The position numbers and the translations under genes were made by a program. Positions 18,517-63,582 of a stretch of DNA of 64,000 bases are shown here, piece by piece. Position 1 is the first letter of the stretch, and every line of letters begins with the position of its first letter. The DNA is from an uncultured bacterium (GTDB taxonomy: Bacteria > CSSED10-310 > CAZUFC01), in contig CAZUFC010000012.1 in assembly GCA_964619725.1 (NCBI GenBank), forward strand, positions 21,161-85,160, written 5' to 3'. The notes beneath the pieces were generated by a model. The model searched no databases and was not told where the DNA came from. It saw only the letters and a list, made by a program, of their open reading frames with translations.

Positions 18517-18770
18517 TGGAATTCATTCTCAGGATAAAAATAAAAAAAGCGACTTCGCGGTCATAGAGGATACATATTCCTGCACCCTGAACGACCGATA
18601 TGATTTTACAGGAAAATACGAAAAATTTAAACCGGTCCGGGTTAAAACCGGGGTTCCGGCAAACGAGAACCCGGCCTGATAAGCTTTAATTATTCAGCGC
18701 CTGTCCAGCAGGCATTATATTTTTGCCGCCAAACGATTTTATGGACACGGGTCGTTCGATTTTTTGGGAT

Positions 18771-18840
18771 TGATTAAACCGTGGTTACACTTCTTTCAAA
18801 ACTTTTGACAGTTTGTTTCAGTAATCGTGATCGGTATCGA
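18771..18840 (+). repeat. Dispersed intergenic element, copy A
   Basis: It reads TGATTAAACCGTGGTTACACTTCTTTCAAAACTTTTGACAGTTTGTTTCAGTAATCG followed by NNATCG hexamers. Confidence 0.85.
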
Positions 18841-18851
18841 TTTTCCACGAA

Positions 18852-21800
18852 TCAGCGGAATGAAAACCTCCTTTTATTTTCATGATAAGTGAAAGCGCCG
18901 TTTTGTATTCGCATTTCTGAAAAGTCGTCTGCCGGATGCAGAATAATAATATCGGAACGGTCTCCATTCCGGCATTCATCACATTTAACAAGAAAAGACA
19001 ATACGGCTATCCGGCCCGGCGTTTCGGTCATAATTGGCGAGAAGGGATCGAACGCCCCGATTCTGATCGTTCCGGGTTCACGTTCGTTATACTGGAACAT
19101 TTCCTACGAGCGTAAAAGATCGCCTTTCCGGCATTCCAGAAATTCAAGCATTTTTGGATCGTATGCTATGTTCAAGCCGAAAGCATCCGTTTTCAACGTT
19201 TGATTGTGCAATGTAGCGATCGCATGGACAATATCGCCTTTTTTTCCGTAGAGGTTATTCAGGCTTAAGGTTCCGTCAGGATTTTCCATGAAGGACGACA
19301 TATCCGGGGGTAAGAATGATTCCGCATTTTCGTATGAACAGGATCGACGCAATCACAATCCAATTCGGCGTAGTGCATCAGAATACATTGGGCATCGCCG
19401 GGCGTTACCATTTCTCCGCCGTCGCAATCTGCCGAACAATTTTCTTCATGGGTGGGATAAGGGATGAACATGAGATAAATATCAAAAGCCATCAGGCCGT
19501 CATTGGGGGTTATTTCACCGTTATTGTCCACATCGCCGTCGTTCCAGCAGAAAGTCGGACAGGGCGCTTCCTGGCTGCTGCTCAACCAGGGTTCGTAAAC
19601 GTTTGACCGTATATCTCATCGCCGTTGCCGGTTGCCTCTCCGGAAGGACCGTCTGAAGCGCCCCAGTAATTGAAGTCGGCCCTGAAAGGGTCTCCCGATG
19701 CGTTGGAATCCACCTTTAATCCGTATACGGAATTATTCCTCACATTATTGTAAGCCATATAACCGCCGGGAATATCGTACGGACCGCCGTAAATTCCGCC
19801 TCCGCCGAAAATGAAAACTCCTTCGGCGTTATCTTCGACGTCGTTGCAGATGCAGGTCAGGTTAAGGACGTCCCAGAACCTGAATCCTTGTCCTTCCCCG
19901 CCGGAACCCTGTATGACGTTATCCACAGAGTTGTATGCGACGTATGCCGTAAGAGCATGATTGATTTCCAATGCGCAAAAGTGAGAACCGGGTTCTCCCT
20001 GATTACCTCCGATGTAACTCCATATGTTATCCTGCACGTCCAGGATATCTGTAAGGTCGCCGTAATTTCCTCGAAGCGCCGTAGTTCCATTGCAATGATG
20101 GATGTAATTGCCGGTAAAAGTTATTTCCGTCAAAGCCAATTCGGATTCGCCTTCCAGACCGGGGGCTTCGACGTCCGTATCCATCACTGCAGCGCCGAGG
20201 ATATTTCTGAATTCGCAGTTCGTAACAGCGAGCGATTCGCTGAATTTATTGCCGTAAAGCCCGTGCCTGCCGGCGACGTTTTCTCCGTCCAGTATGCAGT
20301 CATTCATCGTGAAACCGCTGACGGCTCCGGCATTATCCATTTGAATGATTTTATTCGACCCGGCATCGCCAGTGAAAATGAAATGTTCGATAGTGAGCGA
20401 ATCGATCGGTCCTGTATTATCAAAACGAACGCCTGCGGTGACTTCAGGCAAATCATAAGCATCGCCGGTAAGGGTGAGTTCATCGTTGGTGAAACCGGAG
20501 GCGAAATGAACGGTTTCGTTATAAACGCCGGGATTGACGATTATCGTGCCGGAAAAGGCGACATGAGACAACGCGTCGTTGATATTATCGAAGGCGTCAT
20601 ATCCGAATATATGGCCGTCGACGATCTGACCGGGTGAAGCTCCAGTCCAGTCGTCGTCTGCCCATACGGTCATCGGCGGCGGAGCCGGCGTTGGAGTGTA
20701 AGTGGGCGCCGGCGTATCGGATGGCGTAAGCGGCGGAGTAAAGGTTATGGTCGGCGTAGGTTCCGGAGTAGGCGTATAGGTAGGCGTTGACGTCGGACTT
20801 ACGGTGGGAGTCGGCGTCTCGGTAGGTGTGGGCGACGTATGCCTTATTTCCAGAGCGTAATTGCCTTTATGGGACTGACCAAGACCGTCAACCCAGATAA
20901 AATAATCGCCTGTCTCCAGGTTGCCGCTCCAGTTGATGTAATCGCTTCCTGAATTCACGATATCTCCGCATCCGGGATCAAGATGGTCGCCGTACTGGTC
21001 AGCGCAAAGTATATCCGCTGCAGCGCCGCATGTCGTCGATATGCTCCAGTCAGCATTATAGTCGGCCTCGCCTATTATCTGTACGAAAGTCTCCTGTATA
21101 AGTTCCAGATGATATACTCTGTCCGCTCCTTCATGACCTCCGTTACAGTCATGTTCATCGCCGTAATTCATGGTATTTCCGGTGACGCAATCGCCCAGGC
21201 TGATCGTCTCCGCGCTTTCACAGGTTTCACCCGGAAGCTGTTCGCTTACTTCCAATGCGAACGAGCCGGTCTGAGCTGCGTTTTCGCCGTCGACCCAGAT
21301 ATAATAAGTCCCCGGACCCAGCGTTTCGTTCCAGTTGATGAAACCCTCAACATGCGAATCTATGTTGCCGCAGGAAGGGTCAGTATGAATCCCCCAGGCA
21401 TCTACGCACAATATATCCGCAGCTCCGCCGCAGTCGCTGGTTATGGTCCAGTCCGCCTCATAGTCGGCTTCGCCCACTATCGAAAGATGTTTCTCCGTAG
21501 GTAAATCCAGGCGGTATACCCGATCGCGGCCGTTATGACCTGGATTGCATTGATGGTCGTTCAGATAATTTTCCGTGCTGCCTTCCACACATGAGTCGTA
21601 ACCGATGGTTTCCGCGGTGGAGCATGTTTCGCCCGGCAACTGATCTCTTACCTCCAGAGCATATTGTCCTGAATGAGAATAAGTTTGTCCGTCGATCCAT
21701 AAATAATAGTCGCCCGATGGCAATGTTCCGTTCCAGGCTATATAGCCTTCGACATGATTATCAATTCCCCCGCAGGATAATCCGCCTCGCCGATAACCGT

Positions 21801-23254: not shown

Positions 23255-26200
23255 TTATTCAAACCCCCATTCGACCCAATCGATTTCACCGATCAGCTCC
23301 CAGGAACCGGGCTCCAGGAAAGCGGCCCAGAATTTAAGATTGTGCAGCGAGCCGGCTTCTTCCGGCCAGATGAAATACAGTATCTCTTTCGAGTAATTGC
23401 ATCCGGCGGCCAGCGGCTCGACCACGTAATCCATATCCTGTGACCAGTCGTCATAGAACCAGTATTCCTGATAAATATCCAGAACGATGAACAGCAGGAG
23501 TTCCCTTTCACCGCCGGGATTGATGCATCGGCAGTTCAGGTCGAATTCATCACCGGAGCGGAACATATCACGGTTCAGCGATAATTCTACTGCGGGGCAG
23601 GCGGGAGTAGCGGTAAACTCAAAGGGCGCCGTCGGATAGGGAGTTATTGTCTGAACAGATGTGGGAATGGAGGTGGGTATGAGCGGCGGAGTATAAGTGG
23701 GTGTTTTGGTGAGAACATCCGTAGGGGTTTCGGTAGGAAGTTGCGTCGGGGTATGCGTTGAAGTATGGGTAATTGTCGGAGAACATGTCGGCGAGTGAGT
23801 CGGGGTTGAAGTAGGAATCAGCGTAGAGGTAAAAGTCGGCGTTGGAGTATTCGTAGCCGGTCCCAGAGTGGGCGTCGGAGAAACGGGATAGCTGAGAGAA
23901 CTCAGCCAGGCGGCCGTATTGACGACGAGGTTCTCTCTGGCCGTTTCATCCGTAACGTCGGCTATAGTGAAAGAATAAAACACGACCTGGCCTCCGTTAT
24001 ACCAGTCGCTGTCGTCGTCATAAGCCATCACTCCCCCTCCTGCTGCCGACGTCCACCCGTAAACAGCGTCGACATCGCCTGCAGGCTCGCAGGCATCTTC
24101 ATCGTAATAGGAGGAATAATTGTGAGGAATAATATCCGGCAACAAGTACGGCAGATTCTTTATGGGATGACTTCCTGTCTGGACGGAAAGGTCGCCGGAA
24201 AAATCAACGTTCCAATCCAGAACATGACAAACATTTTCAAGAAAATCAGGATCGGAATAATAGAAATCATAGGCTATTTCTCCGCCTTCTATCAGCAAGC
24301 GCCCACCGTCAGACGTATAATCCGTCAAATCTGAACGCCACTGACCGCTTGATACGGGCTGGGAATTGTCGCCGGCGCTCCAAACCACAAAAGAGTAACC
24401 GCCCCACGTCATAGGATCGGTATCCTGAGCCGCTTCTTCCGTCACATCATAACCGTTTGCCGATAAAACGTCGGCATAGACTGCAGGATTGGCCCCGCCG
24501 CCGTCGTCTATAACCAGGATCGGTCTGGCGCCTATGATCAGAGACAAGGGAATATTACCGCTGAAAAAATCAGCCGAAATGTTGAAGTTCAACAAAACTT
24601 CCTGTCCCACGGGGGCATCGCCGAGTATGTTCAGGATGAAATGGGGCGCCAGCGATTGTTCCGTACCGCCGGAACCGATGTTCGGCCATTCAGCAGAATC
24701 GTCGGTTATTTCAATGTGCGTCGACATGGTACTTAAAATGCCTTGAACGTTTTGCGCCATGCAGTGACCGTCGTTATGGAGCGTTAACGGCAGAGAGATG
24801 CTTTCTCCCGGATCGGGTATCCCGTCGCCGTTTCCGCCTGCCGAATCATCAATAACATGGTCATAATAATCAAGAACAGGCGCTTTTATCATTTCAGAAA
24901 ATCCGCAAACTCCGCTTCCCTCCAAGCATTCCCACGAAACCTCAAAATTAACCGCTTCACCGTCCGGAGCATCTTCGTCGATATCCCACTCCAGATGCGG
25001 TTCCAGTGAGGAGGCGGAAGTATGAGCCGGAATATCCGGAAAAGCGATCTCTTCATTCGTAATCGCCACATAAGGATTTCCTGTCGTTATTAACGCTGTC
25101 ACGCCGGTCGCGTCGAAAATGGAATTATTATAAAAGACAAGCTCGGAGGCGATGCTTTCGCCCGGATTCGCTTCACCGTCGTCGTTGCCGCCGGAATCAT
25201 CCACCGTGTGGCTTTCATAAATCAGATACGGAGCATCACAGGGCGCTTCATAGGAAATGACCATATCGTCAATATTCCACCCGCAGTAAACGTATGAGCT
25301 GTCTGTCGGCCCCATAGTCCATCTTATATAGACCGTGCTCTGACCGTCGGCCGTTTCCGAAATGTCGTAAGTCTGTTTCACCCATTCCCCGTCAGAAAGA
25401 CTCGAACTGTTGTGAAAATATTCATCCCAGTTCGTCCCGTCATTGGATACGTCAAGAACAGCGTGATCGTACGTGCTGGACTCCACGCCCAACCAGCGAT
25501 AAAAACTCAGCTTCGTGCCCAAAGCTCCCGAACAGTTAACGGGAGTTGAAGTCAGCCGGCATGCATTCATGTAATTCTCATAATCTCCATATAGATTATA
25601 TCCGTAAACATTAGTCCCCGTGTATCCGGAAGTCGGATCAGGATCGCCGTGCTCTCCTCCCTGGCCTGTCGGCTGGCCGAATTCCCAGTTTCCGGCTGAA
25701 ATTGTCCAGCCCGGGTCTGTATTCATGGGCTCCGAATACAATTCAACTATCTGATAAGTCGTAAAATCGTAATATGCCCCGCTGTTGTCGTCCACAGTCT
25801 CATTTGAAGCCCGATCCACAGCCTTCACCGCAAAAAAATACTCCATGCAGGTCTCCAGGCCTGTGACCGTAAATTCATGTTCGAACGCAACCTCTTCATC
25901 TGCGGCGACTTGCGCAGGCGGAACAGAAGAACCGTATAGTATCTCGCCGGCAGTCGGCTCGTTCGTAGTCCAGCTCAAGGTGAACCGCTGTGCGCCAATC
26001 ACGACGATGACCACATCCGATATTTCAGGGGATATGCAATCCGCTTCAGCTTCAAAAGTAATCTCCATCGGACCTGTGCCGCCGTAATCTTCATCCAGAT
26101 AAACCGCAGTTATGACGTCCTCATGAGCGATCTGAAGAATGCCGTCAGCCGCCGGCGCGCCGCTCTGGGTCTGCATCACACCCTGAAAAACGCCGTCTTC

Positions 26201-27634
26201 GACTTCAGTCAGAGCTGCGACTTCAGGTTCGGTTTCCGTAGAACTGCTTATTTCAATATCCAGAGTCCCTGTTCCCGCAAGGTCGCTGTCCATAACCGTC
26301 ATACCGATCTCATCATCGCAATTGAAGTAATCTGAACTTAATTCCAGAGCTCCTTCGGAAGTCGGGCCCGATCCCCATAAGGTGACTGTCGCGCCGTAAC
26401 CCTCCGGGTTTTCATCATACTGAGGCGTTTCATCCGCCGTATCATGCTCCTCTGCAAAAAGAAAAGCCTCGTGCATATCTACAACGCCGTCATCGTTCGC
26501 ATCCGCATCAACAGGATTCCCGTACGCATCCTCCCAGTTCACCGCCGCAGTCCAATAAAAAACGTATTCGTCATACTCGTATTCCGGCGGCATTGCCCAG
26601 GACGGCTCATCATATCGGGCTGCAGAGGAAAACACACGGTTCGGACCATGCAGATCATCCAGAAATCCCCCGGAATAGCATTGCTCCCATACCGTCACCA
26701 CGTCCCGGCATTCGACCTGATCAAGCATGTCCGCAAATACGTCGTCCTGCAGGTCCGGACTGGGGTCCCACATTACAAGCACTGTCTCCCAGCCGCCCTC
26801 GCTCGACCCGTGATCAGTCGCATAAACAAAAAGCATGTCTTGCGGACCGATCAATCCGCTCAACTCGTCGAATACCGCCTGAAGATTATCCACCGTTGCA
26901 GAATACATGATGTCCTCGTCTCCGTCACCGTCAAGATCAGGGTCCGAATTCGTGCCGTCTGACCTGTCAGGAGCCGGGTCCAGTCCGTCCGAACATAATA
27001 CGTAGATATGATCGTCCAAATATTCATAAGTGTTCACCAGACATTTATAAATGCTGGAAATATCGTTCCAGTAACGCACATAATTGGAATATTGGGAACC
27101 GCCGCCGGATATGATCACAGCCCATAAATGCTCGGCAGATTTCGCATATCGCGGACGTACCATTTCCCCCTTGTCCCCGCCCGACCACGAAGACTCCATC
27201 GAAATCACCCTCTCACGCCTTCGACTGATTACTTTTTTCATACGCTTAATCATCCGGGGCGGCCGGGTCCAGTTCTTTATGCTTAAACGCCTTCCCCCCG
27301 GCTCAATCAACATATACCGGCAGGGGTGCTCCCAGTTCGCTCCCGGCATGTCATCCGCAAATATGAACCAGGAAGCCGCTTTTATATCTAATACTTCTCC
27401 CTGCCAATCCTCAATCACCGTTCCCGAAGGCAAAGGCTCAGCGCTTACGTAAATTTCCACAGGTTCCTCCAGTGAATCGAACCATTCTTCCTCAATCACC
27501 GGAACCAGTCCCTCCAGGCTCTCCGGCGCCGACAGGGCCGTCATTATGACTTCATCATACTCCGCTCCGCTCACACCGGTTGCAATAAAAAGCGCCGTCA
27601 ACAAAATTGTAATCAGCATCTTGCCCCGCTTCAT
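23255..27634 (-). CDS. Giant secreted multidomain protein with a clan-CD (legumain/gingipain-like) cysteine peptidase module
   Basis: It has a signal peptide and a His/Cys dyad in typical context (VYATDHGS ... VWEQCYSGGF). It also has an FN3-like domain, a jelly-roll (MAM-like) domain, CARDB-like Ig domains and a PT-rich linker. A ~150-aa C-terminal domain has no recognisable family. Confidence 0.7.
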   Translation of the reverse strand: MKRGKMLITILLTALFIATGVSGAEYDEVIMTALSAPESLEGLVPVIEEEWFDSLEEPVEIYVSAEPLPSGTVIEDWQGEVLDIKAASWFIFADDMPGANWEHPCRYMLIEPGGRRLSIKNWTRPPRMIKRMKKVISRRRERVISMESSWSGGDKGEMVRPRYAKSAEHLWAVIISGGGSQYSNYVRYWNDISSIYKCLVNTYEYLDDHIYVLCSDGLDPAPDRSDGTNSDPDLDGDGDEDIMYSATVDNLQAVFDELSGLIGPQDMLFVYATDHGSSEGGWETVLVMWDPSPDLQDDVFADMLDQVECRDVVTVWEQCYSGGFLDDLHGPNRVFSSAARYDEPSWAMPPEYEYDEYVFYWTAAVNWEDAYGNPVDADANDDGVVDMHEAFLFAEEHDTADETPQYDENPEGYGATVTLWGSGPTSEGALELSSDYFNCDDEIGMTVMDSDLAGTGTLDIEISSSTETEPEVAALTEVEDGVFQGVMQTQSGAPAADGILQIAHEDVITAVYLDEDYGGTGPMEITFEAEADCISPEISDVVIVVIGAQRFTLSWTTNEPTAGEILYGSSVPPAQVAADEEVAFEHEFTVTGLETCMEYFFAVKAVDRASNETVDDNSGAYYDFTTYQIVELYSEPMNTDPGWTISAGNWEFGQPTGQGGEHGDPDPTSGYTGTNVYGYNLYGDYENYMNACRLTSTPVNCSGALGTKLSFYRWLGVESSTYDHAVLDVSNDGTNWDEYFHNSSSLSDGEWVKQTYDISETADGQSTVYIRWTMGPTDSSYVYCGWNIDDMVISYEAPCDAPYLIYESHTVDDSGGNDDGEANPGESIASELVFYNNSIFDATGVTALITTGNPYVAITNEEIAFPDIPAHTSASSLEPHLEWDIDEDAPDGEAVNFEVSWECLEGSGVCGFSEMIKAPVLDYYDHVIDDSAGGNGDGIPDPGESISLPLTLHNDGHCMAQNVQGILSTMSTHIEITDDSAEWPNIGSGGTEQSLAPHFILNILGDAPVGQEVLLNFNISADFFSGNIPLSLIIGARPILVIDDGGGANPAVYADVLSANGYDVTEEAAQDTDPMTWGGYSFVVWSAGDNSQPVSSGQWRSDLTDYTSDGGRLLIEGGEIAYDFYYSDPDFLENVCHVLDWNVDFSGDLSVQTGSHPIKNLPYLLPDIIPHNYSSYYDEDACEPAGDVDAVYGWTSAAGGGVMAYDDDSDWYNGGQVVFYSFTIADVTDETARENLVVNTAAWLSSLSYPVSPTPTLGPATNTPTPTFTSTLIPTSTPTHSPTCSPTITHTSTHTPTQLPTETPTDVLTKTPTYTPPLIPTSIPTSVQTITPYPTAPFEFTATPACPAVELSLNRDMFRSGDEFDLNCRCINPGGERELLLFIVLDIYQEYWFYDDWSQDMDYVVEPLAAGCNYSKEILYFIWPEEAGSLHNLKFWAAFLEPGSWELIGEIDWVEWGFE

Positions 27635-27853: not shown

Positions 27854-29197
27854 TTATTCGATGCCGTATTTGTTCAGCTTGGTGCGGAGCGTTTTTCTGT
27901 CTATTCCCAGGAGTCCTGCAGCCTCCGTCTTGTTTCCGGAAGTCAGCGTCATCACCTTCTCGATGTGCTCCCGCTCAGCATCCTCCAAACTCAACGACTC
28001 CTCTGAAATCCACTTCTGATCCATGCCGGTGGAAGTCGGATAAAACAGGTCCTCTGATTCCAGCCGGTCCCCCGTCGACAAAACCACTGCCCTCTCTATA
28101 ACGTTCTCCAGCTCCCGTACGTTACCCGGCCAATCATACTGCACCAACATCCTCATAGCTTTATCCGATATGCCCTTTATTTCCTTCTTCCGCTTCTCAG
28201 CGTATTTCCTCACCGCATAATCCACCAGAAGCGGTATGTCCTCTTTTCTTTCCCTTAACGGCGGTATGAATATCGGGACCACGCTTATCCTGAAATAAAG
28301 ATCATCCCGGAACTTCCCCTCCTTCACTTTTTTCATAAGCTCCTGGTTGGCCGCACATATGATCCTCACGTCTATTTTAAACGACCTGGTTCCGCCGACC
28401 CTGGTGATCTCCCTCTCCTGCAAAGCACGCAACAGCTTCGACTGCGTATTTATACTTAAATTTCCTATCTCATCCAGGAATATTGTTCCACCGTTCGCCA
28501 ACTCGAAACGTCCGTGCTTCGTGGAAACGGCGCCGGTGAATGAACCCTTGACATGCCCGAACAGTTCGCTTTCAAATAATGACTCGACAAGACTCCCGCA
28601 ATCAACCGGCACAAAAGGTTTATCCGCCCTGTTGCCTGAACGGTGGATCGATTTGGCCACCAGCTCCTTGCCCGTACCGCTCTCACCCGTTATCAATACC
28701 GTACTGTCCGTAGGCGCCACTCGCGATACCAGACTCATCACCCTCTTCATCCCATCACTCTTGCCGATGATCTGATTCTCCTGGAACGTCCAATCCAGAG
28801 CGCTCTTTAAATACATGTTCTCCATAGTCAAATCGATTTTTTCGACTGCCCTTTTGATCACAGCCTTTATCTCGTCGGGAGAAAAAGGTTTGGACAGATA
28901 ATCATATGCTCCCAGCTTCATCGCCTCCACCGCTGAAGCCACCGTCGCATATCCCGTGATCATGATGACAACCGTGTCCGGATGCTCCGCCTTGATCTTC
29001 TTAAGCAATTCAAAACCGCCAATATCCGGCAACTTCAAATCCAGCAGAACTATCGGGTAATAAACGTGCTTTAAATACTCCTTACCCTCGCTCCCGTTCT
29101 CCGCCGCATCAACTTCATATCCCTCCTGCGTCAAAATGCGGTTCAAAGAACGACGCACTATCTTCTCATCATCTATTACCAGTATCCTGGTCGACAT
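27854..29197 (-). CDS. Sigma-54-dependent response regulator (NtrC family)
   Basis: It has a REC domain (LVIDDE...LLDLKLPD), an AAA+ module (GESGTGKE, GSFTGA, a variant of the GAFTGA loop) and a C-terminal Fis-type HTH (NKTEAAGLLGIDRKTLRTKL). Confidence 0.9.
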   Translation of the reverse strand: MSTRILVIDDEKIVRRSLNRILTQEGYEVDAAENGSEGKEYLKHVYYPIVLLDLKLPDIGGFELLKKIKAEHPDTVVIMITGYATVASAVEAMKLGAYDYLSKPFSPDEIKAVIKRAVEKIDLTMENMYLKSALDWTFQENQIIGKSDGMKRVMSLVSRVAPTDSTVLITGESGTGKELVAKSIHRSGNRADKPFVPVDCGSLVESLFESELFGHVKGSFTGAVSTKHGRFELANGGTIFLDEIGNLSINTQSKLLRALQEREITRVGGTRSFKIDVRIICAANQELMKKVKEGKFRDDLYFRISVVPIFIPPLRERKEDIPLLVDYAVRKYAEKRKKEIKGISDKAMRMLVQYDWPGNVRELENVIERAVVLSTGDRLESEDLFYPTSTGMDQKWISEESLSLEDAEREHIEKVMTLTSGNKTEAAGLLGIDRKTLRTKLNKYGIE

Positions 29198-29465: not shown

Positions 29466-29481
29466 CGGCACGGTTCTTGCT
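29466..29481 (+). promoter_or_regulatory. Sigma-54 (-24/-12) promoter of the REC / REC-kinase / REC-malic-enzyme operon
   Basis: CGGCACGGTTCTTGCT compares to the consensus TGGCACG-N4-TTGCW with correct GG-N10-GC spacing. It lies 75 nt upstream of the 29556 start and is divergent from an NtrC-type activator gene. Confidence 0.6.
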
Positions 29482-32903: not shown

Positions 32904-33005
32904 TCCCCTCCAGCCCGGATTTTTCATGCCGAATCCCCTAAACCGGCAGGAAAAATCCGGGCGACCCACTAAAAAAAAGGGCTGCCACGGGGGTTGCCAC
33001 GGGGG

Positions 33006-33059
33006 TCAGAGCCCGTCGCAAACTCTTGATGGGGTTAGAGCCCGTCGCAAACTCTTGAT
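33006..33059 (+). repeat. Direct 25-nt repeat x2 abutting the vapC stop codon
   Basis: T(C/T)AGAGCCCGTCGCAAACTCTTGAT occurs twice, 29 nt apart. It is preceded by TGCCACGGGGG x2 (32883-33005). Confidence 0.9.
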
Positions 33060-37731: not shown

Positions 37732-38134
37732 CTCTCTGACGCTCCTTTCCTCATCTGCAATTTTCATAACTTCTGACTGCTCAGTCAAGTCATTTCATCT
37801 CCAGGTTCCGTTTCCTGGTTTTGTCAATAAATGACGATCTTCTCGTTTCTCTGCGTCATTCTTCAGACTTGATTGTGCGGCGCATGCCCGATATGTCTCC
37901 GAACTAATTCTTGAATTCCTTGATAAATAAAAAACTCTCATTTCTGGATCAAAAACTCGCAGCGCCTGGCCGGCAACAATGTTTGAATCGACAATCGACT
38001 TTGTGGACAGGCGCTCACAAACTTTTTTCCCAGGAGGCGCTCCTTAATTGAACTGACCTTTGTCAACCCCCCTTTTTACATAAAATCAATAAATTATAAT
38101 AAGATCAACATAAATTTTTTTTTCGCTTCATTTC

Positions 38135-49160: not shown

Positions 49161-50384
49161 ATGATGCCTGTTTTTAAAACTTTCCTTCTCTTGAGTATCT
49201 TTTGTTTCAGCATCGTTTCTTCTGTTTTCGCCGAAGATATCCTTTTATTCGACAAGGCCAACCGGTTTTATGTCGCTGAACAGTACGACAAGGCGCTTAC
49301 CTATTACGTCAAGGCCCTGGAAAGCGACGAAAAAGGCGAGTATACAGACCTGACTATCCTTCTGATCGGAAAATGCCTGAAAAAATTAGGAAATTGGGAA
49401 AAAGCGGAAGAAACCCTGGGAACCCTGATGAAAAAGTATCCCCGAAGCGAATGGGCCGACGATGCCTTGCTTTGTTTGAGCGAACACTATTTAAACAAAG
49501 CATCCAAACAGAATTATCTGAAATCGATCGACCTGCTCAAACAGATCATTACTCATTTTCCAAACAGGGACACAGCGCCTAAAGCCATGAATAAAATCGG
49601 CGAATGTTATCTGAACATGGGAGAATTTAAAAAAGCCGAACAGTGGTTCAACGTTTTGCTGAAAAGAACTCAAGACACAGACCTGCTGGCAGCCGCATTT
49701 TTTAATCTGGCTCGCATCTATTCTTCACCGGGATTCGATAAAAAAAATCCCGAAAAATCCATCGAATTCCTTAAAGCCATCCTGCAGCATCACCCGGATT
49801 ATCCGCGTCTGCCTGCCGTCTATTTCGCTCTGGGCAATATTTACCTGGAATTACAGAAATACCGTGAAGCTTTCGATATGTTTACCAGCGTGGTGGATAA
49901 ATTTCCCGATTCATGGTACGCCGCTTTCTCTCAATCTCAAAAACTCCTTTATCATAAAAATTTAAAAGATTATTCCACTCTGACGGATGAATATGAAAAA
50001 TTCATAAAAAATTATCCGGTCCCGCCCAACAACCTGATCGAACACCCCTTACCGGAAAACAAATCCGAAAAATCCACCGACAATGAATTGAAAATAAAAG
50101 CTGACCACTTGGAATACCGTTACTTCTCGAACGTCGAAACCGTCTGGGAAGACATAAAAATAATAGCCGATCAAGCCTTGTACAACTCCGAAACCTTAAC
50201 CCTGCAATGCAGCGGACACGTCAAATTAATCAAGTCCTCCGGCTTGACCGTAACCGGCGATTATATAAACATCTTCTTTGAAACTCAGGAAGGATTCGCC
50301 GGCGGAAACGCCCTGCTGAAACGTAAAACCCAGGACGGAGAAAAAATCGAAAAAGGTCAAACCATTCGATTCAAACTTAATTAG
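49161..50384 (+). CDS. Secreted TPR protein (BamD/YbgF-like repeats) with an OstA/LptA-like C-terminal domain
   Basis: It has a signal peptide starting at MMPVFKTFLLLSIF and several TPR units. The C-terminal beta segment is IKADHLEY...GHVKLI...TGDYINIFF...GGNALL. Confidence 0.6.
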   Translation: MMPVFKTFLLLSIFCFSIVSSVFAEDILLFDKANRFYVAEQYDKALTYYVKALESDEKGEYTDLTILLIGKCLKKLGNWEKAEETLGTLMKKYPRSEWADDALLCLSEHYLNKASKQNYLKSIDLLKQIITHFPNRDTAPKAMNKIGECYLNMGEFKKAEQWFNVLLKRTQDTDLLAAAFFNLARIYSSPGFDKKNPEKSIEFLKAILQHHPDYPRLPAVYFALGNIYLELQKYREAFDMFTSVVDKFPDSWYAAFSQSQKLLYHKNLKDYSTLTDEYEKFIKNYPVPPNNLIEHPLPENKSEKSTDNELKIKADHLEYRYFSNVETVWEDIKIIADQALYNSETLTLQCSGHVKLIKSSGLTVTGDYINIFFETQEGFAGGNALLKRKTQDGEKIEKGQTIRFKLN

Positions 50385-50440
50385 TGTCTGTCCACAAACT
50401 CGAATCTCGATTCAAAATTTGATGCTGGACAGCCACTTGG

Positions 50441-50583
50441 GTTTTTGATCCATAAACGGGCGAATTTTTCTTAAGGTTAGGAAGGCAAGGATTTGCGAAG
50501 AAGGCGTATTTATTATATGTTGACTGAGCAAATCGTTAGCCTGACGCAGCATTGGGGGAAATTCGCCGTTTATGGACAAAAAC
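50441..50583. repeat. ~143-nt imperfect palindrome
   Basis: The arms GTTTTTGATCCATAAACGGGCGAATTT and AAATTCGCCGTTTATGGACAAAAAC pair with each other. An inner pair AGGCAAGGATTTGC / GCAAATCGTTAGCCT is also present. Confidence 0.8.
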
Positions 50584-50631
50584 TAATTAGCGCCTCTCCA
50601 TAAACTCGTTTTCCAATTCAAATTTCGGCGC

Positions 50632-50717
50632 TGATCAAACGTGGACCGCACTTCTTTCAAACCTTTTGACAGTTTTTTCAGTAATCGGGGTCGGGATCGG
50701 GATCGGCATCGTAATCG
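50632..50717 (+). repeat. Dispersed intergenic element, copy B
   Basis: It reads TGATCAAACGTGGACCGCACTTCTTTCAAACCTTTTGACAGTTTTTTCAGTAATCG followed by GGGTCG GGATCG GGATCG GCATCG TAATCG. Confidence 0.85.
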
Positions 50718-50808: not shown

Positions 50809-50824
50809 TGGCACTATTATAGCG
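50809..50824 (+). promoter_or_regulatory. Candidate sigma-54 promoter upstream of the secretin gene
   Basis: TGGCACTATTATAGCG has correct GG-N10-GC spacing, but the -12 element is TAGC rather than TTGC. Confidence 0.3.
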
Positions 50825-51041
50825 ATTTGCCTTTGAAAGGCTTTCGATGCAAAACAAAAGACAAGATGTAATCTGACTGTCTGTGGATCACTTGTCAAGA
50901 CTGATCAAATGGAGGTTACAATTTTTGCGAATCGCTTCTTCCTTATCCGTGATAATCAGCGCTGTCTGCCGCTGCGGACTCTTTGCAATCGTTTCCAGGT
51001 TCCCTGGTATTTTATTTATCGCCCCTGTGTTTTCTGAACTG

Positions 51042-56233: not shown

Positions 56234-56590
56234 TTAATTCTGATCCTGGCTTTTTTCCATAAATATAATTATTTCTTGAATTTTCGCTTTCACTTCAGGC
56301 AAACGATTTCTTATCGTAGTCCAAACGATATTGTCGTCAATGCCAAAGTAAAAATGTATGAGTCTATCTCTCATACCTGCCATTTCTTTCCAGGGCACAT
56401 TGGGATAACATCGTCTAATTTCATCCGGCAAATTTTTTACTGCTTCACCGATTATTTCAAATTTCCGAATAACAGCGCTCGATGTTTTATCATCTGCGCA
56501 GAACTCCTCAAATTTCATTCCTTTCGTGAAATTTTCAATGCTGTTAATAGCTGAAAGAATGTCCTTCACATACAACAGATAGTCTCTCAT
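56234..56590 (-). CDS. hepT: HepT-like (DUF86) RNase toxin
   Basis: It has the Rx4HxY motif in RDRLIHFYF and is 118 aa. It overlaps the upstream nucleotidyltransferase gene by 4 nt. Confidence 0.8.
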   Translation of the reverse strand: MRDYLLYVKDILSAINSIENFTKGMKFEEFCADDKTSSAVIRKFEIIGEAVKNLPDEIRRCYPNVPWKEMAGMRDRLIHFYFGIDDNIVWTTIRNRLPEVKAKIQEIIIFMEKSQDQN

Positions 56591-56886
56591 AACTTTACGG
56601 CCTCATTCAGTATCTTCTGTTTCAGTTCATCCCTGAGAGCCCTTCGCGATACGACATCTACTCTGCATTGAAAAACATCCTCCAAAAAAATCGCCAGTCC
56701 CGTAAGATCGAACAGGTCTGCTTCATCTTCAAATTCCGCCAGAATGTCTATGTCGCTGTCGGGATGTTGTTTATTTCGAACGATGGAGCCGAATAATCGG
56801 ATTTCTTTAACTCTGTACTTTTTTATCATTTCAGGTTTCAATTCACGTAAACGATCAAGAATTTGCTCTGTGGTCAAAAAAACCAT
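56587..56886 (-). CDS. mntA: MNT-type nucleotidyltransferase antitoxin
   Basis: It has the GSIVRNKQHPDSDIDIL motif (GSx10DxD). I chose the start at MVFLTT. Confidence 0.8.
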   Translation of the reverse strand: MVFLTTEQILDRLRELKPEMIKKYRVKEIRLFGSIVRNKQHPDSDIDILAEFEDEADLFDLTGLAIFLEDVFQCRVDVVSRRALRDELKQKILNEAVKL

Positions 56887-57131
56887 GGCTTCTCCCTTTA
56901 ACCTGATCAATCAGGTTCTGCGATACCCTTCGAAAGAAACTTGCCGACCGAAAATACTCCTTAAGATGCCGCAAGCTCAACTATTTATTTTACCCGGATT
57001 CCAAAAGAATTCCAATACTCAGATGGAGTCAGCATCCGGAATGGGGTCAGAGCCCTCCGCAAAACAATGAAAACGGTTTTCCCTTTTCCGTGATCAATCT
57101 GCTGAATCCAGCGCCCGGCAATCTGCCCGGT

Positions 57132-58139: not shown

Positions 58140-59042
58140 TTAATTTCCCATGCTCGTCATGACTCTGGCTCCCGGCGGCACATCCTTCGTCACCCACATA
58201 TTGCCTCCGATTACCGCGCCTTTCCCGATAGTTATTCTCCCCAGAATGGTTGCTCCCGAATATATGATCACATCATCCTCAACGACAGGATGCCGGGGAA
58301 TTCCCTTTATCGGATTCCCGTTCTCATCCAGCGGAAAACTCTTCGCTCCCAGCGTCACCCCCTGGTAAACGCGCACGTTGCGCCCGATTTCACAGGTCTC
58401 TCCTATCACTATACCCGTTCCATGGTCCATGAAAAAACGCTCGCCTATTGTCGCTCCCGGATGAATATCTATCCCGTTCTCCGAATGCGCTGCTTCCGTT
58501 ATGATACGGGGGATCAAATCCACCCCCAGCAGATGCAACTCATGCGCAAGCCGAAAATGGGTCATCGCATTGATGCTGGGATAACAAAAAATAGTCTCCC
58601 TGGGACTCTTAGCCGCAGGATCGCCCTCATACGCAGCATGAACGTCCTGTGAAAGCAACGTCCTTATCGACGGCAGCTTCTCAATGAACTCTGACGTGAT
58701 TCGTCGCGCCCGGCTCTCGCAGTCTTCGCAATCCACCGTTTCATCCGCAGGACAGGAAAAGCAGAATCCGCGCTTCACCTGGTCCGTAAGCAACCGGAAT
58801 ACTTCATCAATCATTGCTCCTACGTGATACATCATCGTTCTCGGAGACAACTCAGGCGCCCAGAAATAACCCGGAAAAAGCACCCCCTTCAATATGTTCA
58901 CCGCCTGCTTTAATATCGCAACAGAAGGCATCGGCATCTCATGATCATGACGATGAACCACCGACCGATAAGATTCCGGTCGACATAATTCCTTCGTCGT
59001 CCTGTCTATCGTCTCCTCATATCTCGTTTCATCTTCCTTCAT
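58140..59042 (-). CDS. cysE: Serine O-acetyltransferase
   Basis: It has an SATase N-domain and a hexapeptide-repeat C-terminus (GATIGERFFMDHGTGIVIGETCEIG...). It lies directly upstream of cysK. Confidence 0.88.
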   Translation of the reverse strand: MKEDETRYEETIDRTTKELCRPESYRSVVHRHDHEMPMPSVAILKQAVNILKGVLFPGYFWAPELSPRTMMYHVGAMIDEVFRLLTDQVKRGFCFSCPADETVDCEDCESRARRITSEFIEKLPSIRTLLSQDVHAAYEGDPAAKSPRETIFCYPSINAMTHFRLAHELHLLGVDLIPRIITEAAHSENGIDIHPGATIGERFFMDHGTGIVIGETCEIGRNVRVYQGVTLGAKSFPLDENGNPIKGIPRHPVVEDDVIIYSGATILGRITIGKGAVIGGNMWVTKDVPPGARVMTSMGN

Positions 59043-59075
59043 ATTATCCTTCCCTTCCTTCTCATTTACCTCAAT

Positions 59076-59104
59076 ACTTTATCACTTATGCCCCGTCTTT
59101 TCAA
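59076..59104 (-). promoter_or_regulatory. Candidate sigma-70-type promoter for cysE-cysK
   Basis: The minus strand reads TTGAAA, a 17-nt spacer, then TAAAGT, ~30 nt upstream of the cysE start. Confidence 0.3.
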
Positions 59105-59725
59105 AATCCAGTTACGCTAGCCATGCTCAAAATCCATAGAGGTTTTTTGCATATCAAGCCATGACAGAAAAAAAAAGACGTTTAAAATTCAGGGACTGCC
59201 CGAATCGCCGTTTGCGGATCAGAAACCGCAGCGCCTTTACAGCAGCGAGATTGTATCGGCTATTGATTTTATGGACCAGCGCTGTTTAACGAATTCAGCG
59301 CTGTATTTTTTGATCGAAAGCAGCTTATATCGCCAATCGGCGGGCGGTATCGGCATCGGAGTCGAAACAAATAATCACCAGGAGTTTTCCCGAAAAACCG
59401 GCTGCTTATCAAACGATCAGCTCGATGACCTCCCCACAGATATCTGACTATTGCACACACGTGACACAATAGTTCAATTGGGTCTGTTCTTTATTTTAGA
59501 TTTACGATTGTGTTGCCTATACCGACTCCGATTCCCGACAGAGGCTGTGTGGGATAAAAAATAATGGACTGCCTGAATCAGACAGTCAAACAGCGCTCAC
59601 AGGCAAAGTCCCCCCGCTTGCGGCTTTGGCATTAGGATAAGAATGCCGACTTATTAAATTAAGGTATTGATTAAGAATGCGTCTATTGAGGTGACGATTT
59701 TTCAGAATTTCTCATCATTTTATTT

Positions 59726-59807
59726 CGATTACGAATCCGATAGCGACCCCGGACTTCCGAAACTGACTGTCGAACGTTTTGAAAAAAGTGTAATCCTGGT
59801 TTGATCA
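59726..59807 (-). repeat. Dispersed intergenic element, copy D
   Basis: The reverse complement reads TGATCAAACCAGGATTACACTTTTTTCAAAACGTTCGACAGTCAGTTTCGGAAGTCCGGGGTCGCTATCGGATTCGTAATCG. Confidence 0.8.
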
Positions 59808-59885
59808 GTCGTAAAAAATGTAACCTTGAAAAATGTATATATGATCAGAGCCGGAATTATTAAAGCGAACAAAATGAATTCTGTT

Positions 59886-59923
59886 GTCCTTTCCGTCCCT
59901 TTGGTCCTTTTCGTCCTTTCAAA
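59886..59923 (-). repeat. Degenerate GGGAC-type array R3
   Basis: The reverse complement reads AGGACGAAA AGGACCAAA GGGACGGAA AGGACAACA. It has the same orientation as R2. Confidence 0.7.
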
Positions 59924-60022
59924 AAGGATGTGAAATTCTACGGCGCCATTCTGGACGATGAAGTGAACGATATCATGGGCTATCAGGATGTTGTTGAATT
60001 TGGGTAGGGGCTTTAATATAAA

Positions 60023-60095
60023 GGGACAAAGGGACAAAGGGACAAAGGGACAAAGGGACCTAAGGGACCTAAGGGACCTAAGGGACAGAAGGGAC
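60023..60095 (+). repeat. GGGAC short-tandem-repeat array R1
   Basis: The array is (GGGACAAA)x4 (GGGACCTAA)x3 GGGACAGAA GGGAC, read directly. Confidence 0.95.
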
Positions 60096-60314
60096 TTTTG
60101 GCGCTTAAAATCATTTGGTTAAGCAAAACTTTTATTTGAAAATTAACCTTCTTCAGAAAGATACTGAATTTTTGGATTGATCTTACCGGGGGTGCAGTTT
60201 TTCATAAAACCTTTGACTGATTACAATTTCCATTAAATAAACTGAATTTTACCCAAAATTATCTGTTTGACGACTTCACCGCCGGCTCTTCATCAATGGC
60301 CATTTATTTCTATA

Positions 60315-60385
60315 CCGACATTGACCTGCGATTACCGTAACAAACTGACAAACGTTTTGAAAGAAGTGCAGCCACGTCATGATCA
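60315..60385 (-). repeat. Dispersed intergenic element, copy C (inside the R1/R2-bracketed segment)
   Basis: The reverse complement reads TGATCATGACGTGGCTGCACTTCTTTCAAAACGTTTGTCAGTTTGTTACGGTAATCG... Confidence 0.85.
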
Positions 60386-60467
60386 GTCCCAAAATTCCGT
60401 TTATTTTTAGAGACAGTTATTCTTCAGATGCCGGTTTTTGCTTATACAAGTGATTCATATTCCAGTC

Positions 60468-60550
60468 GTCCCTTCTGTCCCTTAGGTCTCTTAGGTCCCT
60501 TAGGTCCCTTTGTCCCTTTGTCCCTTTGTCCCTTTGTCCCTTTGTCCTTT
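60468..60550 (-). repeat. GGGAC array R2, the inverted copy of R1
   Basis: Its reverse complement equals R1 with one substitution (GAGACCTAA) plus one extra degenerate 8-mer. It lies 372 bp from R1. Confidence 0.95.
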
Positions 60551-60815
60551 AATCAATATAACCCGTACATAAATACAATCACGGCATAATCGCCCCTGAT
60601 GAAAAGGGATCAGAGCCCCTGGGAAGCCTATAATATCAGGAATTTTTGTTTTATCTTCCGACATTATTATAATGATACGAGGATTGTCGAAGCTGAGCAT
60701 TTGTCCGAAAAAATCCCGTAAGGAGCAGATCGCGATAAAAGAGAATGTTCATCTCTCACGATTCGAAGTTCGTCCCGAACGAAAAGCCTTTTCATTCACC
60801 GAAAGGAGGAGGATT

Positions 60816-62675
60816 TTGAAGAAAAATTACATTGCTGAATTGGGATTGATTATACTGACCGTATTTGCTGCCGCTGCAGGCGTTTATGCAATACCGGAAG
60901 GGATTAATTACCAGGGAAAGATCGAGGTAGACGGGGAACCTTTCTCGGGAACCGCTTACTTTCGTTTCGCCATTGTAGACGCATCGGGCATGATTACCTA
61001 CTGGAGCAACGACGGCTTGGAGATTCCTCAGACTGATATTGAACTGTCCGTAACCAACGGGTTGTATAATGTTGTCCTGGGCAAATCGATGAATCCGCTG
61101 CCTGCCGACGTTTTTCAGAATGACGAATTGTACTTGAGAATATGGTTTGAAGACGGACCTTCGGGAATTTACGACATGCAATTACTGAGTCCCGATCAAC
61201 CTCTGACGAACGTAAGTTTTGCATATCAGGCAGGTGACGTTTACGACAGGGAAATTTCCCCTAAAAAAGTATCCATTGCCGGTTACGGGGAAGTTATTGA
61301 TGCGCTGGGTCAGTGGGTTGGAGACCCCACCGGTCTGGAAGGACCGACGGGTCCTCAGGGAGATACCGGACCTCTCGGACCGCAGGGACATACCGGAACT
61401 GTCGGGCCGCAGGGAGATACCGGACCCATCGGACCGCAAGGAAATACCGGAACTGTCGGGCCGCAGGGAGACACTGGACCCATCGGACCGCAAGGACACA
61501 CTGGACCCGTCGGACCGCAGGGAGACACCGGACCCGCCGGACCGCAAGGACATACCGGACCTGTCGGGCCACAGGGAGATACCGGACCCCTCGGACCGCA
61601 GGGACATACCGGAACTGTCGGGCCGCAGGGAGACACCGGTCCCATCGGACCGCAAGGACACACCGGACCCGTCGGACCGCAGGGAGACACCGGACCCGCC
61701 GGACCGCAAGGACATACCGGACCTGTCGGACCGCAGGGAGATACCGGAACTGTCGGGCCGCAGGGAGACACCGGTCCCCTCGGACCGCAGGGACACACCG
61801 GACCCGTCGGACCGCAGGGAAATACCGGACCCGTCGGGCCGCAGGGAGATACCGGACCCCTCGGACCGCAGGGTGCGACCGGTCCGCAAGGAGACACTGG
61901 TCCGACAGGACCCATAGGCGGCGCCAACATGCAACTTCTTTATAACGACAACGGTCTTACAGGAGGTGCAGACATCTATTATAATGACTCCTCGTCCTAC
62001 CTGGGTATCGGAACGTCATCTCCAGCATCAATATTGCACCTCTACGGGCAGGATGCGGTCAGATTTAAAATTACAAGCATCGGCGACGGTTGGCCCATCA
62101 TCGACCTTTACTCCGATTCCAAATTATGGCAGATAACCCAACACGACACAGTCGGCTATTTCGGAGTATGGGAAGACGGTACTTTGAGTCGACTCATCAT
62201 TAAGGAAGGCGGCGACGTTGGAATAGGAACGACCGATCCCGTCAGCAAACTTGAAGTTAACGGCACAATCACGGCAACCGCCTTTGTAGGTGACGGCTCC
62301 GGATTAACCGGCGTCGGCTCCGACCCCGTTCCCATCGGCGGCATTATACCCTGGGCTAAAAATATTCCCGGAGTGCCTGCTCTGCCGGCAAACTACGTCG
62401 AATGCAACGGACAGGTCCTCAACGATCCGCAAAGCCCCCTCAACGGACAAACCATCCCGGACTTGAACGGCGCATCAGGTTCACAGCGCTTCCTCCGCGG
62501 CAGCACGAGTTCAGGGGCAGTCGGCGGTGCAGATACTCATTCCCATTCCATTCCGAACCATTACCCCAATGGACAATGGGACGGCGACTGGGGCGACAAT
62601 TTCGGACCTCAGACAGGGGCGTCCAGCTCACTCCCCAGCTACTACGAAACCGTTATGGTTATGAGGATCAAATAG
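60816..62675 (+). CDS. Secreted collagen-like triple-helix repeat protein with a tail-fibre / tail-collar-like C-terminus
   Basis: The TTG start lies 5 nt after a GGAGGAGG RBS, followed by a signal peptide. About 65 Gly-X-Y triplets are present, including 19 consecutive GPQG(D/H/N)TGxx nonapeptides. The C-terminus (IPWAKNIPG...YVECNGQVL...IPDLNG...FLRG...GGADTHSH) resembles phage tail-collar domains. Confidence 0.8.
61350..61865 (+). repeat. 27-nt tandem repeat (about 19 units) inside the collagen-like gene
   Basis: The unit is GGnCCGCArGGAnAnACnGGnnCnnTC, encoding GPQG(D/H/N)TGxx. Confidence 0.9.
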
Positions 62676-62781: not shown

Positions 62782-63222
62782 CTATTCGCCGCCGTGATGC
62801 CTCAGTTGATACTGCAGTCCGCTGTCGCAAGGACCCAATTCAAACGTTACTATCGTCTCAAATCCTGCTTCGATTAATACTGTTTCTTCGTCCCTGCCTA
62901 TACCCTTTTTTCGAGCCTTTGCCGTATACTCGCCTGCCGGTATGTCTTCAATGTAAAATTCGCCGAATTCATCCGTCGTGTCCGAATATATCATTCCATG
63001 CGGGCCGTGAGGTCCATAAGGTCCGCCGCCGCCAAGCTCATCTTCTTCAGCCGGGCATACTACGACAAATACATAAGCCCCTTCAACCAATTCCTCAGTT
63101 TCCAGATCAATGACCATTCCGCTGAGAACCCCGACTTCATCGCCGCCGGCATAACTCATACTTGAAATGACGCCCATCAGCAGCACACTCATAGCGATTA
63201 ACAGTAATTTTTTCAATTTCAT
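62782..63222 (-). CDS. Small secreted protein with a carboxypeptidase-regulatory-like fold
   Basis: It has a signal peptide and the segments GMVIDLETEELVEGAYVFV...TTDEFGEFYIEDIPAGEYTAKARKKG. A sigma-54 promoter lies upstream. Confidence 0.65.
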   Translation of the reverse strand: MKLKKLLLIAMSVLLMGVISSMSYAGGDEVGVLSGMVIDLETEELVEGAYVFVVVCPAEEDELGGGGPYGPHGPHGMIYSDTTDEFGEFYIEDIPAGEYTAKARKKGIGRDEETVLIEAGFETIVTFELGPCDSGLQYQLRHHGGE

Positions 63223-63287: not shown

Positions 63288-63303
63288 CAGCAATTGCCGT
63301 GCC
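63288..63303 (-). promoter_or_regulatory. Sigma-54 (-24/-12) promoter
   Basis: The minus strand reads TGGCACGGCAATTGCT, a full match to TGGCACG-N4-TTGCW. It lies ~65 nt upstream of the 63222 start. Confidence 0.65.
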
Positions 63304-63582
63304 AAAACAATATTAACCCCACCCAAACGATACCTGCAAATTCTCTGGGGCTTCTCTCTCAAAACTTAACATCCATAAGTCAGCCTTACTCATTCGTTTT
63401 GCTGAATATTGCCTCATAACCGGTATCCCACGTCACCATACTTTTTTTGTTCCTGCATTGTATCGTTTCGAGACAACTCATTTTTCTGTATCGATATGAA
63501 ACAATCAGAAGACAGGTACCCGACAAGAAAACGTTTTCAGTTTAAAAAGAAATCTGAAAAAAAGTAAGATATGAGGAAAACA

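Follow-up and report, generated by a model that had tools for sequence, protein, structure and literature searches.

A window of 64,000 nucleotides (nt) from an uncultured bacterium (GTDB lineage CSSED10-310; CAZUFC01; assembly GCA_964619725.1, contig CAZUFC010000012.1) contains, upstream of a gene for a collagen-like fibre protein, two long inverted arrays of GGGAC octamers and nonamers, R1 and R2, which bracket a segment of 372 nt. Does this pair form an invertible switch for the fibre gene, or has it arisen, and would it act, in some other way? The initial annotation pointed out that long inverted repeats around a small segment next to a surface-protein gene are laid out like phase-variation switches, while doubting that the locus is a classical inverton, and it listed among the alternatives an RNA hairpin, a CsrA-titrating RNA, and a miniature inverted-repeat transposable element (MITE). 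The analysis described here does not support a recombinase-driven phase switch, and no sign of a working on/off switch was found at the locus. The best overall explanation, which we hold tentatively, is that of a repeat cluster made of inverted duplications of one module, in which the arrays have been homogenised and which acts, if at all, via nucleic-acid folding.

Arrays, element copies, and modules of the locus

R1 (60023-60095) reads (GGGACAAA)x4 (GGGACCTAA)x3 GGGACAGAA GGGAC, with a switch of period from 8 to 9 nt inside the array, and contains nine GGG tracts separated by loops of 5-6 nt. R2 (60468-60550) is the reverse complement of R1 with one substitution (GGTCTC, 60486-60491) and one extra degenerate outer unit (GTCCTTT); read on the minus strand, it comprises eight intact GGG tracts, one substituted unit (GAGAC), and one degenerate outer unit (GGAC). 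The pair is convergent, being G-rich on the plus strand and then on the minus strand. This anatomy, a long inverted repeat of 8-nt and then 9-nt units with 372 bp between the arms, had been described in the initial annotation and is reproduced by the sequence itself, by a repeat search, and by Tandem Repeats Finder (TRF), now with 75 of 76 positions matched (99%) between 60020-60095 and 60468-60543. The spaced pair GGGACN3GGGAC occurs eight times in the window, where 0.12 occurrences are expected by chance, and GGGACN4GGGAC six times (0.16 expected), all of them within R1 and R2. The decayed third array that had been proposed to the left of R1 is also found by TRF (Table 1), with the units GTCCTTTCC GTCCCTTTG GTCCTTTTC GTCCTTTC.

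A profile search (nhmmer) detects five full copies (A to E) of a dispersed element of ~90 nt in the 64 kb, in addition to partial ones. Within the element there is an inverted repeat (ACTGATCAAA ... TTTGACAGT) as well as a hexamer similar to TTGACA, and its tail consists of repeated hexamers of the GATCGG type (TRF 50684-50711). Three of the five full copies (C, D, and E) are located in this locus. Copies C and D had been recognised before, and the profile search recovers both. The bracketed segment had been said to hold copy C and no credible open reading frame (ORF), and both statements stand, but a second copy, E, inverted with respect to C, had been overlooked there. The profile score is 79 bits for C vs 47 bits for E. 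In all three cases the element is found 75-79 nt from an array (C from R2, E from R1, and D, measured from its TGATCAGTC end, from the decayed array), and the earlier view that the third array with its element repeats the arrangement of R2 and copy C is borne out by the respective spacings of 75 and 79 nt. Owing to this equal spacing, the locus can be described as three copies of one module (M1, M2, and M3) composed of element, spacer, and array. M2 and M3 stand head to head and form a quasi-palindrome of 531 bp (60020-60550), the ends of which are the exact ends of the arrays. Copies A and B are found in opposite orientations relative to their flanking genes, and neither of them carries arrays; in this respect the element resembles an intergenic repeat of no fixed orientation more than it does a defined promoter.

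The two arms and the segment between them differ in how well they have been kept. Aligned pairwise as inverted copies, the halves of the interior retain 59% identity (z 8.1 vs shuffles). With 99% identity in the arms vs 59% (41% differences) in the interior, the arrays alone have been homogenised; at a divergence like that of the interior, one mismatch in 76 positions would be essentially impossible. The order of the blocks is also identical in both arms (four AAA, three CTAA, and one AGAA), beyond what independent slippage would give, which points to copying between R1 and R2 or to strong selection. The firmest mechanistic statement that the data allow is that sequence would have been copied between the two arms, by gene conversion or template switching, or else that strong selection would have kept them alike. 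Since exchange between inverted repeats can bring crossovers that invert the interior, flipping of the segment on an evolutionary time scale is plausible.

The interval that carries these modules (59043-60815) is the largest gene-free stretch of the window, the rest of which is tightly packed with housekeeping genes (the rib operon, nusB, mutL, miaA, hflX, ftsY, cysEK, and tldD/pmbA), in agreement with the earlier remark that a non-coding stretch of 1.7 kb is unusual here. It contains no ORF longer than 102 aa, and its longest stop-free frames comprise 108 and 129 aa (ORF list and six-frame translation); no Pfam domain was detected at E<=0.1 in ten of its stop-free frames. For the same interval, Rfam gave no match at the gathering score and none better than E 2.8 even at permissive thresholds, a tRNA search found none, and no plasmid or phage sequence matched when the whole interval was compared by blastn. 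Across the 64-kb window, recombinase, integrase, and transposase domains are absent from the 46 larger ORFs (>=120 aa) that were scanned, as the earlier statement that the window has no recombinase gene would lead one to expect. No sigma-54 promoter was found in a scan of the locus, which led us to abandon the idea that the element is an enhancer site or a sigma-54 promoter for all copies but, possibly, B. Sigma-70-like sites are present on both strands within the bracketed segment (consensus scan), and the dispersed element shows no conserved RNA structure, with no covariation and a consensus energy of ~0 on both strands.

A short ORF stub of 25 codons (VKFYGAILDDEVNDIMGYQDVVEFG and stop) is positioned between the third array and R1, which starts 12 nt past its stop codon. 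The stub has no usable ribosome-binding spacing, and the third array is located 6 nt upstream of it, on the antisense strand. It weakly resembles (E 0.057, in-window) the last 26 residues (23255-23341; KF.A.L...G..D.VE.G) of a 1459-aa protein with a peptidase-C13 domain encoded at 23255-27634 on the minus strand. The stub is possibly a 3'-end relic of a paralogous gene, and the 3' flank of that gene may have carried the original array. At the left of the locus, a terminator-like hairpin on the minus strand (Table 1) would stop leftward transcripts ahead of cysE.

If the contig was assembled from short reads, the orientation of a segment between inverted repeats of 76 nt is reliable only where reads span an arm. 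A contig from an independent assembly, the only other one of this strain that was found (Logan SRR7048225_85783), is 100% identical and stops at 59549, before the arrays. The break directly adjoins the partial element tail copy at 59516-59548, which fits repeat-induced fragmentation of the locus in short-read assembly.

Table 1. Positions of the features of the locus and of related repeats, in window coordinates
Feature	Position	Strand	Evidence and remarks
Non-coding divergent interval	59043..60815	.	1.77 kb, between cysE (58140-59042, -) and the collagen-like fibre gene (60816-62675, +); ORF list, six-frame translation
Terminator-like hairpin and T-run	59567..59587	-	Consensus scan
Module M1	59733-59923		Points right
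Element copy D (M1)	59733-59818	-	nhmmer E 5.7e-22; alignments
Decayed third array, G-rich on -	59886..59923	-	TRF 59888-59920, period 9, 3.7 copies; repeat families D1, D2
ORF stub, 25 codons	59930..60007	+	Six-frame translation
Module M2	60020-60237		Points left
R1, G-rich array, left arm of the 76-nt inverted repeat (M2)	60020..60095	+	Repeat search, TRF, pattern scan
Bracketed 372-nt segment, diverged palindrome	60096..60467	.	Pairwise alignment, RNA fold, inverted repeat I13
Element copy E (M2)	60164-60237	+	nhmmer E 1.3e-13; ~78 nt from R1; inverted vs C
Module M3	60311-60550		Points right
Element copy C (M3)	60311-60400	-	nhmmer E 9.1e-24; 79 nt from R2
R2, right arm, G-rich on -, C-rich on + (M3)	60468..60550	-	Repeat search, TRF, pattern scan
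Second dispersed motif, ending in perfect TATAAT (60629-60634)	60606..60634	+	Repeat family D4
Collagen-like fibre gene	60816-62675	+	Pfam Collagen 9.7e-29, translation, TRF
Element copy A	18757-18843	+	nhmmer
Element copy B	50618-50704	+	nhmmer
Partial element copies	50895-50935 and 59516-59548		

GGGAC arrays in other genomes

Sequences of CysE, MutL, and the N-terminal domain of the fibre protein were searched against 5.8 billion proteins. The best database identities were 70%, 44%, and 43%, respectively, and the named matches were scattered over unrelated phyla; the lineage of the organism appears to branch deeply and to be essentially unsampled. Three homologues of the fibre domain were found, and the contigs of the two that were looked up have neither arrays nor a large intergenic gap. 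Exact look-ups of the fibre protein, of the neighbouring gene, and of two ORFs within the locus gave no match, and the array junction 22-mer was found in only two contigs of the JGI metagenomes, both unrelated.

Arrays of the type GGGACN3 x4 were found at 120 or more loci in many phyla when one genome per species was scanned. The matches listed include Acidobacteriota, Planctomycetota/Phycisphaerae, Verrucomicrobiota, Kiritimatiellales, Bacteroidota, Ignavibacteria, Gemmatimonadota, cyanobacteria, Chloroflexota, and actinomycetes, and the following counts refer to these matches. Many of the arrays keep the core and vary the spacer, and they comprise between 4 and 22 units, depending on the locus. 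ORFs at these loci were called crudely, by a procedure that is unreliable in high-GC genomes, and approximately half of the arrays fall inside a called ORF. Where an intergenic array follows an ORF on the same strand, it begins at most 60 nt past the stop codon in 25 of 35 cases, and in 16 of the 19 co-directional cases it is nearer to the upstream stop than to the downstream start. At the loci that were inspected, stop codons are found a few bases ahead of the first unit, and a hairpin often comes after the array. In Acidobacteriota and some Bacteroidota (L024, L047, L055, L064, L010, and others), most of the 3-nt spacers within GGGAC arrays are themselves stop codons (TAA, TGA, TAG), and at a period of 8 such spacers place stops in all three frames right after the gene's own stop.

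Viral contigs contain 62 stretches of GGGACN3 x4. Control cores give similar counts (GGGCA 73, GGACG 64, partly the same arrays in rotated form, and GGGAT 30), and GGGAC arrays are thus not uniquely frequent. Their spacers are heterogeneous in 46% of cases in the viral contigs and in 57% among the matches listed in genomes, vs 21% for GGGCA and 29% for GGACG, which hints at a constraint on the core beyond slippage. Several phage-like contigs of high GC content (L125, L133, and L165, which represent one 42.8-kb IMG/VR contig, as well as L157 and L141) carry 4-11 GGGAC arrays each. In such contigs, arrays on the sense strand nearly fill the short gaps between a stop and the next start on the same strand, an arrangement suggestive of a function in polycistronic mRNAs.

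Convergent pairs of GGGAC arrays are also found elsewhere, with gaps of 51 nt (L087), 35 nt followed by a T-run (L093), 215 nt between convergent genes (L101), and 36 nt (L157). Most of these other pairs consist of two independent arrays with different spacers, whereas the pair in the window and the one in L122, an AT-rich metagenome contig, are true inverted duplications. In L122 (1487-1605), four GGGAC units with the spacers AAA, CTAA, and CTCA are followed by a loop of 9 nt and by the inverted units, and the flanks pair as well; this perfect hairpin, which precedes a gene by ~20 nt in a divergent intergenic region, shares with the window the AAA and CTAA unit types and the order of the units.

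The closest known counterparts are the G-quadruplex-forming heptamer repeats described by Rehm et al. (2015; PMC4692102), GGGAATC in Xanthomonas and GGGGA(C/T)T of the STRR type in Nostoc, which either follow closely on a stop codon, in sense orientation, or precede a gene, in antisense orientation. Convergent inverted pairs, which are able to form stem-loops, number 70-75 per Xanthomonas genome, and the type of pair is conserved between species (PMC4692102). The arrays of the window likewise consist of tandem units with GGG(A) tracts, are intergenic, belong to a type dispersed over many genomes, and form a convergent inverted pair; with at least four head-to-tail units of at least three G each, they have the unit structure of the class of G-rich simple sequence repeats of 7-9 nt. 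The placement rules of that class also match those of the GGGAC arrays in other genomes. In contrast to the heptamers, the unit in the window is 8-9 nt long with a GGGAC core, and the period switches inside one array. The arms, at 76 nt, are 99% identical and 372 nt apart, with a diverged palindrome and two element copies between them; the arrays do not adjoin the 3' ends of extant genes, and the host is from an unsampled deep-branching lineage. The intergenic TAACTGA heptamers of Beggiatoaceae, cyanobacteria, and Bacteroidetes (MacGregor 2015, PMC4679880) differ in sequence from the arrays of the window, are present in 2-6 copies, mostly lie a few nt upstream of start codons, and include only one reported inverted set. 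Judged by their sequence, R1 and R2 are a long-spacer, truly duplicated variant of the known convergent pairs of G-rich bacterial microsatellites.

Folding, inversion, mobility, and protein binding as explanations

The tentatively preferred explanation combines an origin with a mode of action. Successive inverted duplication of one module of ~230 nt (the ~90-nt element, a spacer of 75-79 nt, and an octamer/nonamer microsatellite) would have given the three copies, after which, most likely, gene conversion or template switching between inverted copies would have kept the arrays, and only these, identical; this process would now and then flip the interior as well. A transcript or a single DNA strand covering both arms would form a perfect stem of 76 bp closing a rod-like interior. 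Such a stem would block or terminate read-through transcription or trigger cleavage of the transcript, and would in this way insulate the fibre gene from the divergently oriented cysE; expression of the fibre gene would then depend on a start downstream of R1. Folding predictions are consistent with this: the RNA across both arms reaches -256.4 kcal/mol (z -22), and the interior as RNA folds into a rod (-92.1 kcal/mol, z -4.5). The arrays by themselves are predicted to be essentially unstructured or prone to form G-quadruplexes, and the energy model places one such quadruplex in the (GGGACAAA)4 block of R1. The RNA hairpin proposed earlier is thus valid computationally, while the co-transcription of the arms that it also assumed is unproven. 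A function would probably be exerted by folding rather than by a recombinase-driven switch, with fold-back in RNA or single-stranded DNA, together with the G-quadruplex potential of the G-rich strands, as the most likely mode of action, if any; the locus may equally have little or no selected function.

Several observations weigh against this explanation. The predicted RNA hairpin would form only if both arms were on one transcript, and the spacer of 372 nt exceeds those of the other pairs seen (9-215 nt). The arrays of the window are not beside the 3' ends of extant genes, unlike in the usual placement. The identity of the arms beside an interior with 41% differences could instead be due to selection acting directly on the sequence of the arrays, for instance if proteins bind there, and the core is kept while spacers vary in 46-57% of GGGAC arrays vs 21-29% of the controls. 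The direction of any promoter in the element is ambiguous, given the opposite orientations of copies A and B relative to flanking genes.

Inversion as a switch would require homologous (RecA-type) or site-specific recombination between R1 and R2 to flip 60096-60467, change the element (C or E) that faces the fibre gene, and thus vary expression. In favour of it, a near-perfect inverted repeat of 76 nt is located beside a surface-protein gene; homogenised arms around an interior diverged by 41% imply ongoing exchange between the arms, crossovers of which invert the segment; and the difference in score between C and E means that the two states need not be equivalent. The interior, however, is quasi-symmetric, and an element copy is present at the same distance and with the same polarity in either orientation. 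Inversion would put E at the position of C (~79 nt from R2) with the same polarity, and sigma-70-like sites are found on both strands, which makes an ON/OFF flip of a promoter unlikely. In the known invertible promoter switches (fimS/FimBE, hin/hix, and the invertons of Bacteroides), inverted repeats also bracket a few hundred non-coding bases upstream of a gene for a surface structure, but their recombinase sites are 9-35 bp long instead of long tandem arrays, a single directional promoter takes the place of the symmetric interior, and the window has no tyrosine or serine recombinase nearby. Of the inverton hallmarks, the locus has the flanking inverted repeats, atypically long and repetitive, and lacks both the nearby recombinase and the one-way internal promoter. 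No recombinase is encoded in the 64 kb, and the arms are generic microsatellite arrays of a class found in many phyla without associated invertases; on these three grounds, including the quasi-palindromic interior, the phase-switch layout noted at first loses weight and the doubt expressed about a classical inverton is upheld. We consider such a switch quite unlikely. Mobility is rated as scarcely more probable: the 531-bp unit (60020-60550) would be a non-autonomous fold-back or MITE-like element with tandem arrays as terminal repeats, or the ~230-nt module would itself be the mobile unit. The unit is small and non-coding and has terminal arms of 76 nt; the palindrome terminates exactly where the arrays do, three copies of the module are found in the locus, and the inner element is dispersed (copies A and B). 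The MITE reading offered earlier is supported by these terminal inverted arrays, the size of 531 bp, and the non-coding content; its weak part is the flanking direct repeat, as the short AT-rich repeats (TAATAT on the left and CAATAT on the right, displaced by 4 nt) are imperfect and of low complexity. Arrays are missing from copies A and B, no transposase is found within the window, and no second 531-bp copy was detected in the window, in JGI metagenomes (junction 22-mer), or in plasmids or phages. Fold-back (FB) transposons and palindromic MITEs resemble the unit in being non-coding and shorter than 600 bp, with long terminal inverted repeats (with tandem sub-repeats in FB) and a whole unit that folds back; unlike it, FB elements are eukaryotic, and the unit in the window is without a clear target-site duplication, further copies found, or a partner transposase. 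We know of no described bacterial transposon family with 8/9-mer arrays as its ends.

A further explanation, improbable as well but placed slightly ahead of these two, is that the arrays are iterated recognition sites for a protein, either operators in DNA or sites in RNA; each module would be a regulated promoter or leader unit, and R1 and R2 would be identical as sites of the same factor. This can be likened to the tandem 8-bp met boxes of MetJ, the heptad arrays of omega, and the spaced triplets in RNA that are recognised by TRAP. The core of 5 nt is invariant while the spacers vary in sequence and length, the spacers across genomes are more heterogeneous than those of the control cores (46-57% vs 21-29%), the distance to the element is constant (75-79 nt) in three modules, the identity of the arms is far above that of their flanks, and elsewhere the arrays are placed strand-specifically beside stop codons. 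On the other hand, a length of anywhere between 4 and 22 units, depending on the locus, is unfit for a fixed oligomer, the 8/9 switch of period disfavours a phased DNA-binding filament, GGGAC arrays are no commoner than GGGCA or GGACG arrays in viral contigs, and the window encodes neither a candidate binding protein nor csrA. A signal for Rho loading (rut) on the C-rich strand is limited to an excess of C over G ~2 standard deviations above the window mean, outside the top windows. A broader version, in which the arrays would be RNA or DNA sites for an oligomeric protein common to bacteria of the PVC (Planctomycetes-Verrucomicrobia-Chlamydiae) group, Acidobacteriota, Bacteroidota, cyanobacteria, and phages, ~28 such sites, spread over the three promoter-like modules of this locus, would together serve as a regulatory hub for the fibre gene, and R1 and R2 would owe their identity to selection for binding and not to recombination, is more doubtful. 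RecA-type flipping, fold-back mobility, and protein binding are thus each possible with a low probability. Titration of CsrA, suggested in the initial annotation, was rejected: no csrA was detected in the window by tblastn, there is no Rfam match to CsrB/Rsm, and the GGA motifs are not in hairpin loops. Small RNAs of the CsrB/RsmZ type do share with the locus many GGA motifs clustered in a non-coding region, but in the window GGA recurs every 8-9 nt in an unstructured or G-quadruplex-prone run, rather than in hairpin loops in an A(N)GGA context, and no discrete promoter or terminator bounds a small RNA.

The fibre gene, other observations, and significance

A distance of 265 nt separates R2, in antisense orientation, from the start of the fibre gene. 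The fibre gene has a TTG start after GGAGGAGG and encodes a signal peptide, ~19 repeats of 27 nt, and a C terminus weakly similar to tail-collar proteins. A phage-tail context for this gene was rejected, as the PHROG matches are confined to the collagen region and the Tail Collar match (E 0.0015) is below the cut-off. A consensus scan found no sigma-70 promoter between R2 and the gene; the perfect TATAAT that ends a copy of a second dispersed motif (GGGRTCAGAGCCC...) in this region was missed by that scan, having no match to a -35 box. This copy is a candidate proximal promoter element of the fibre gene. The same motif is also found at 33002-33059, as a tandem 29-mer in two copies, and at 57043-57071.

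Other observations concern more distant parts of the window. A perfect sigma-54 promoter consensus (TGGCACGGCAATTGCT) is present at 63289-63304 (-), 67 nt upstream of a gene with a CarboxypepD_reg domain (62782-63222, -). Versions with one or two mismatches are found at 50809-50824 (+), upstream of a secretin gene (50883), and at 29466-29481 (+), upstream of a response-regulator gene (29556), and a sigma-54 activator is encoded at 27854-29197. At 18852-19585 (-), three consecutive short ORFs on the minus strand, including a dockerin-like stretch (DGDVDNNGEITPNDGL), come after the gene at 19582-21723 and look like its frameshifted or decayed continuation; the 1-kb gap there is therefore not truly non-coding. 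An inverted repeat of ~100 nt (73-76% complementary) joins the intergenic regions 37924-38025 and 50373-50473, 12 kb apart, and a toxin-antitoxin pair of the HepT/MNT (nucleotidyltransferase) type is positioned at 56234-56910 (-), between pmbA/tldD and cysK.

Many phyla that have received little study commonly carry arrays of G-rich repeats of 7-9 nt. In genome scans, such arrays can be mistaken for invertons, which calls for caution. The locus is a clean natural example of two inverted arrays kept identical amid divergence, with the arrays themselves as the target of recombination or selection. Flipping, if seen in reads, would make it an inversion system that is based on microsatellites and needs no recombinase; a binding protein, if one were found, would reveal a widespread regulatory code. 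As it stands, the locus mainly adds octamer and nonamer units, and a deep-branching host lineage, to a class of repeats already known.

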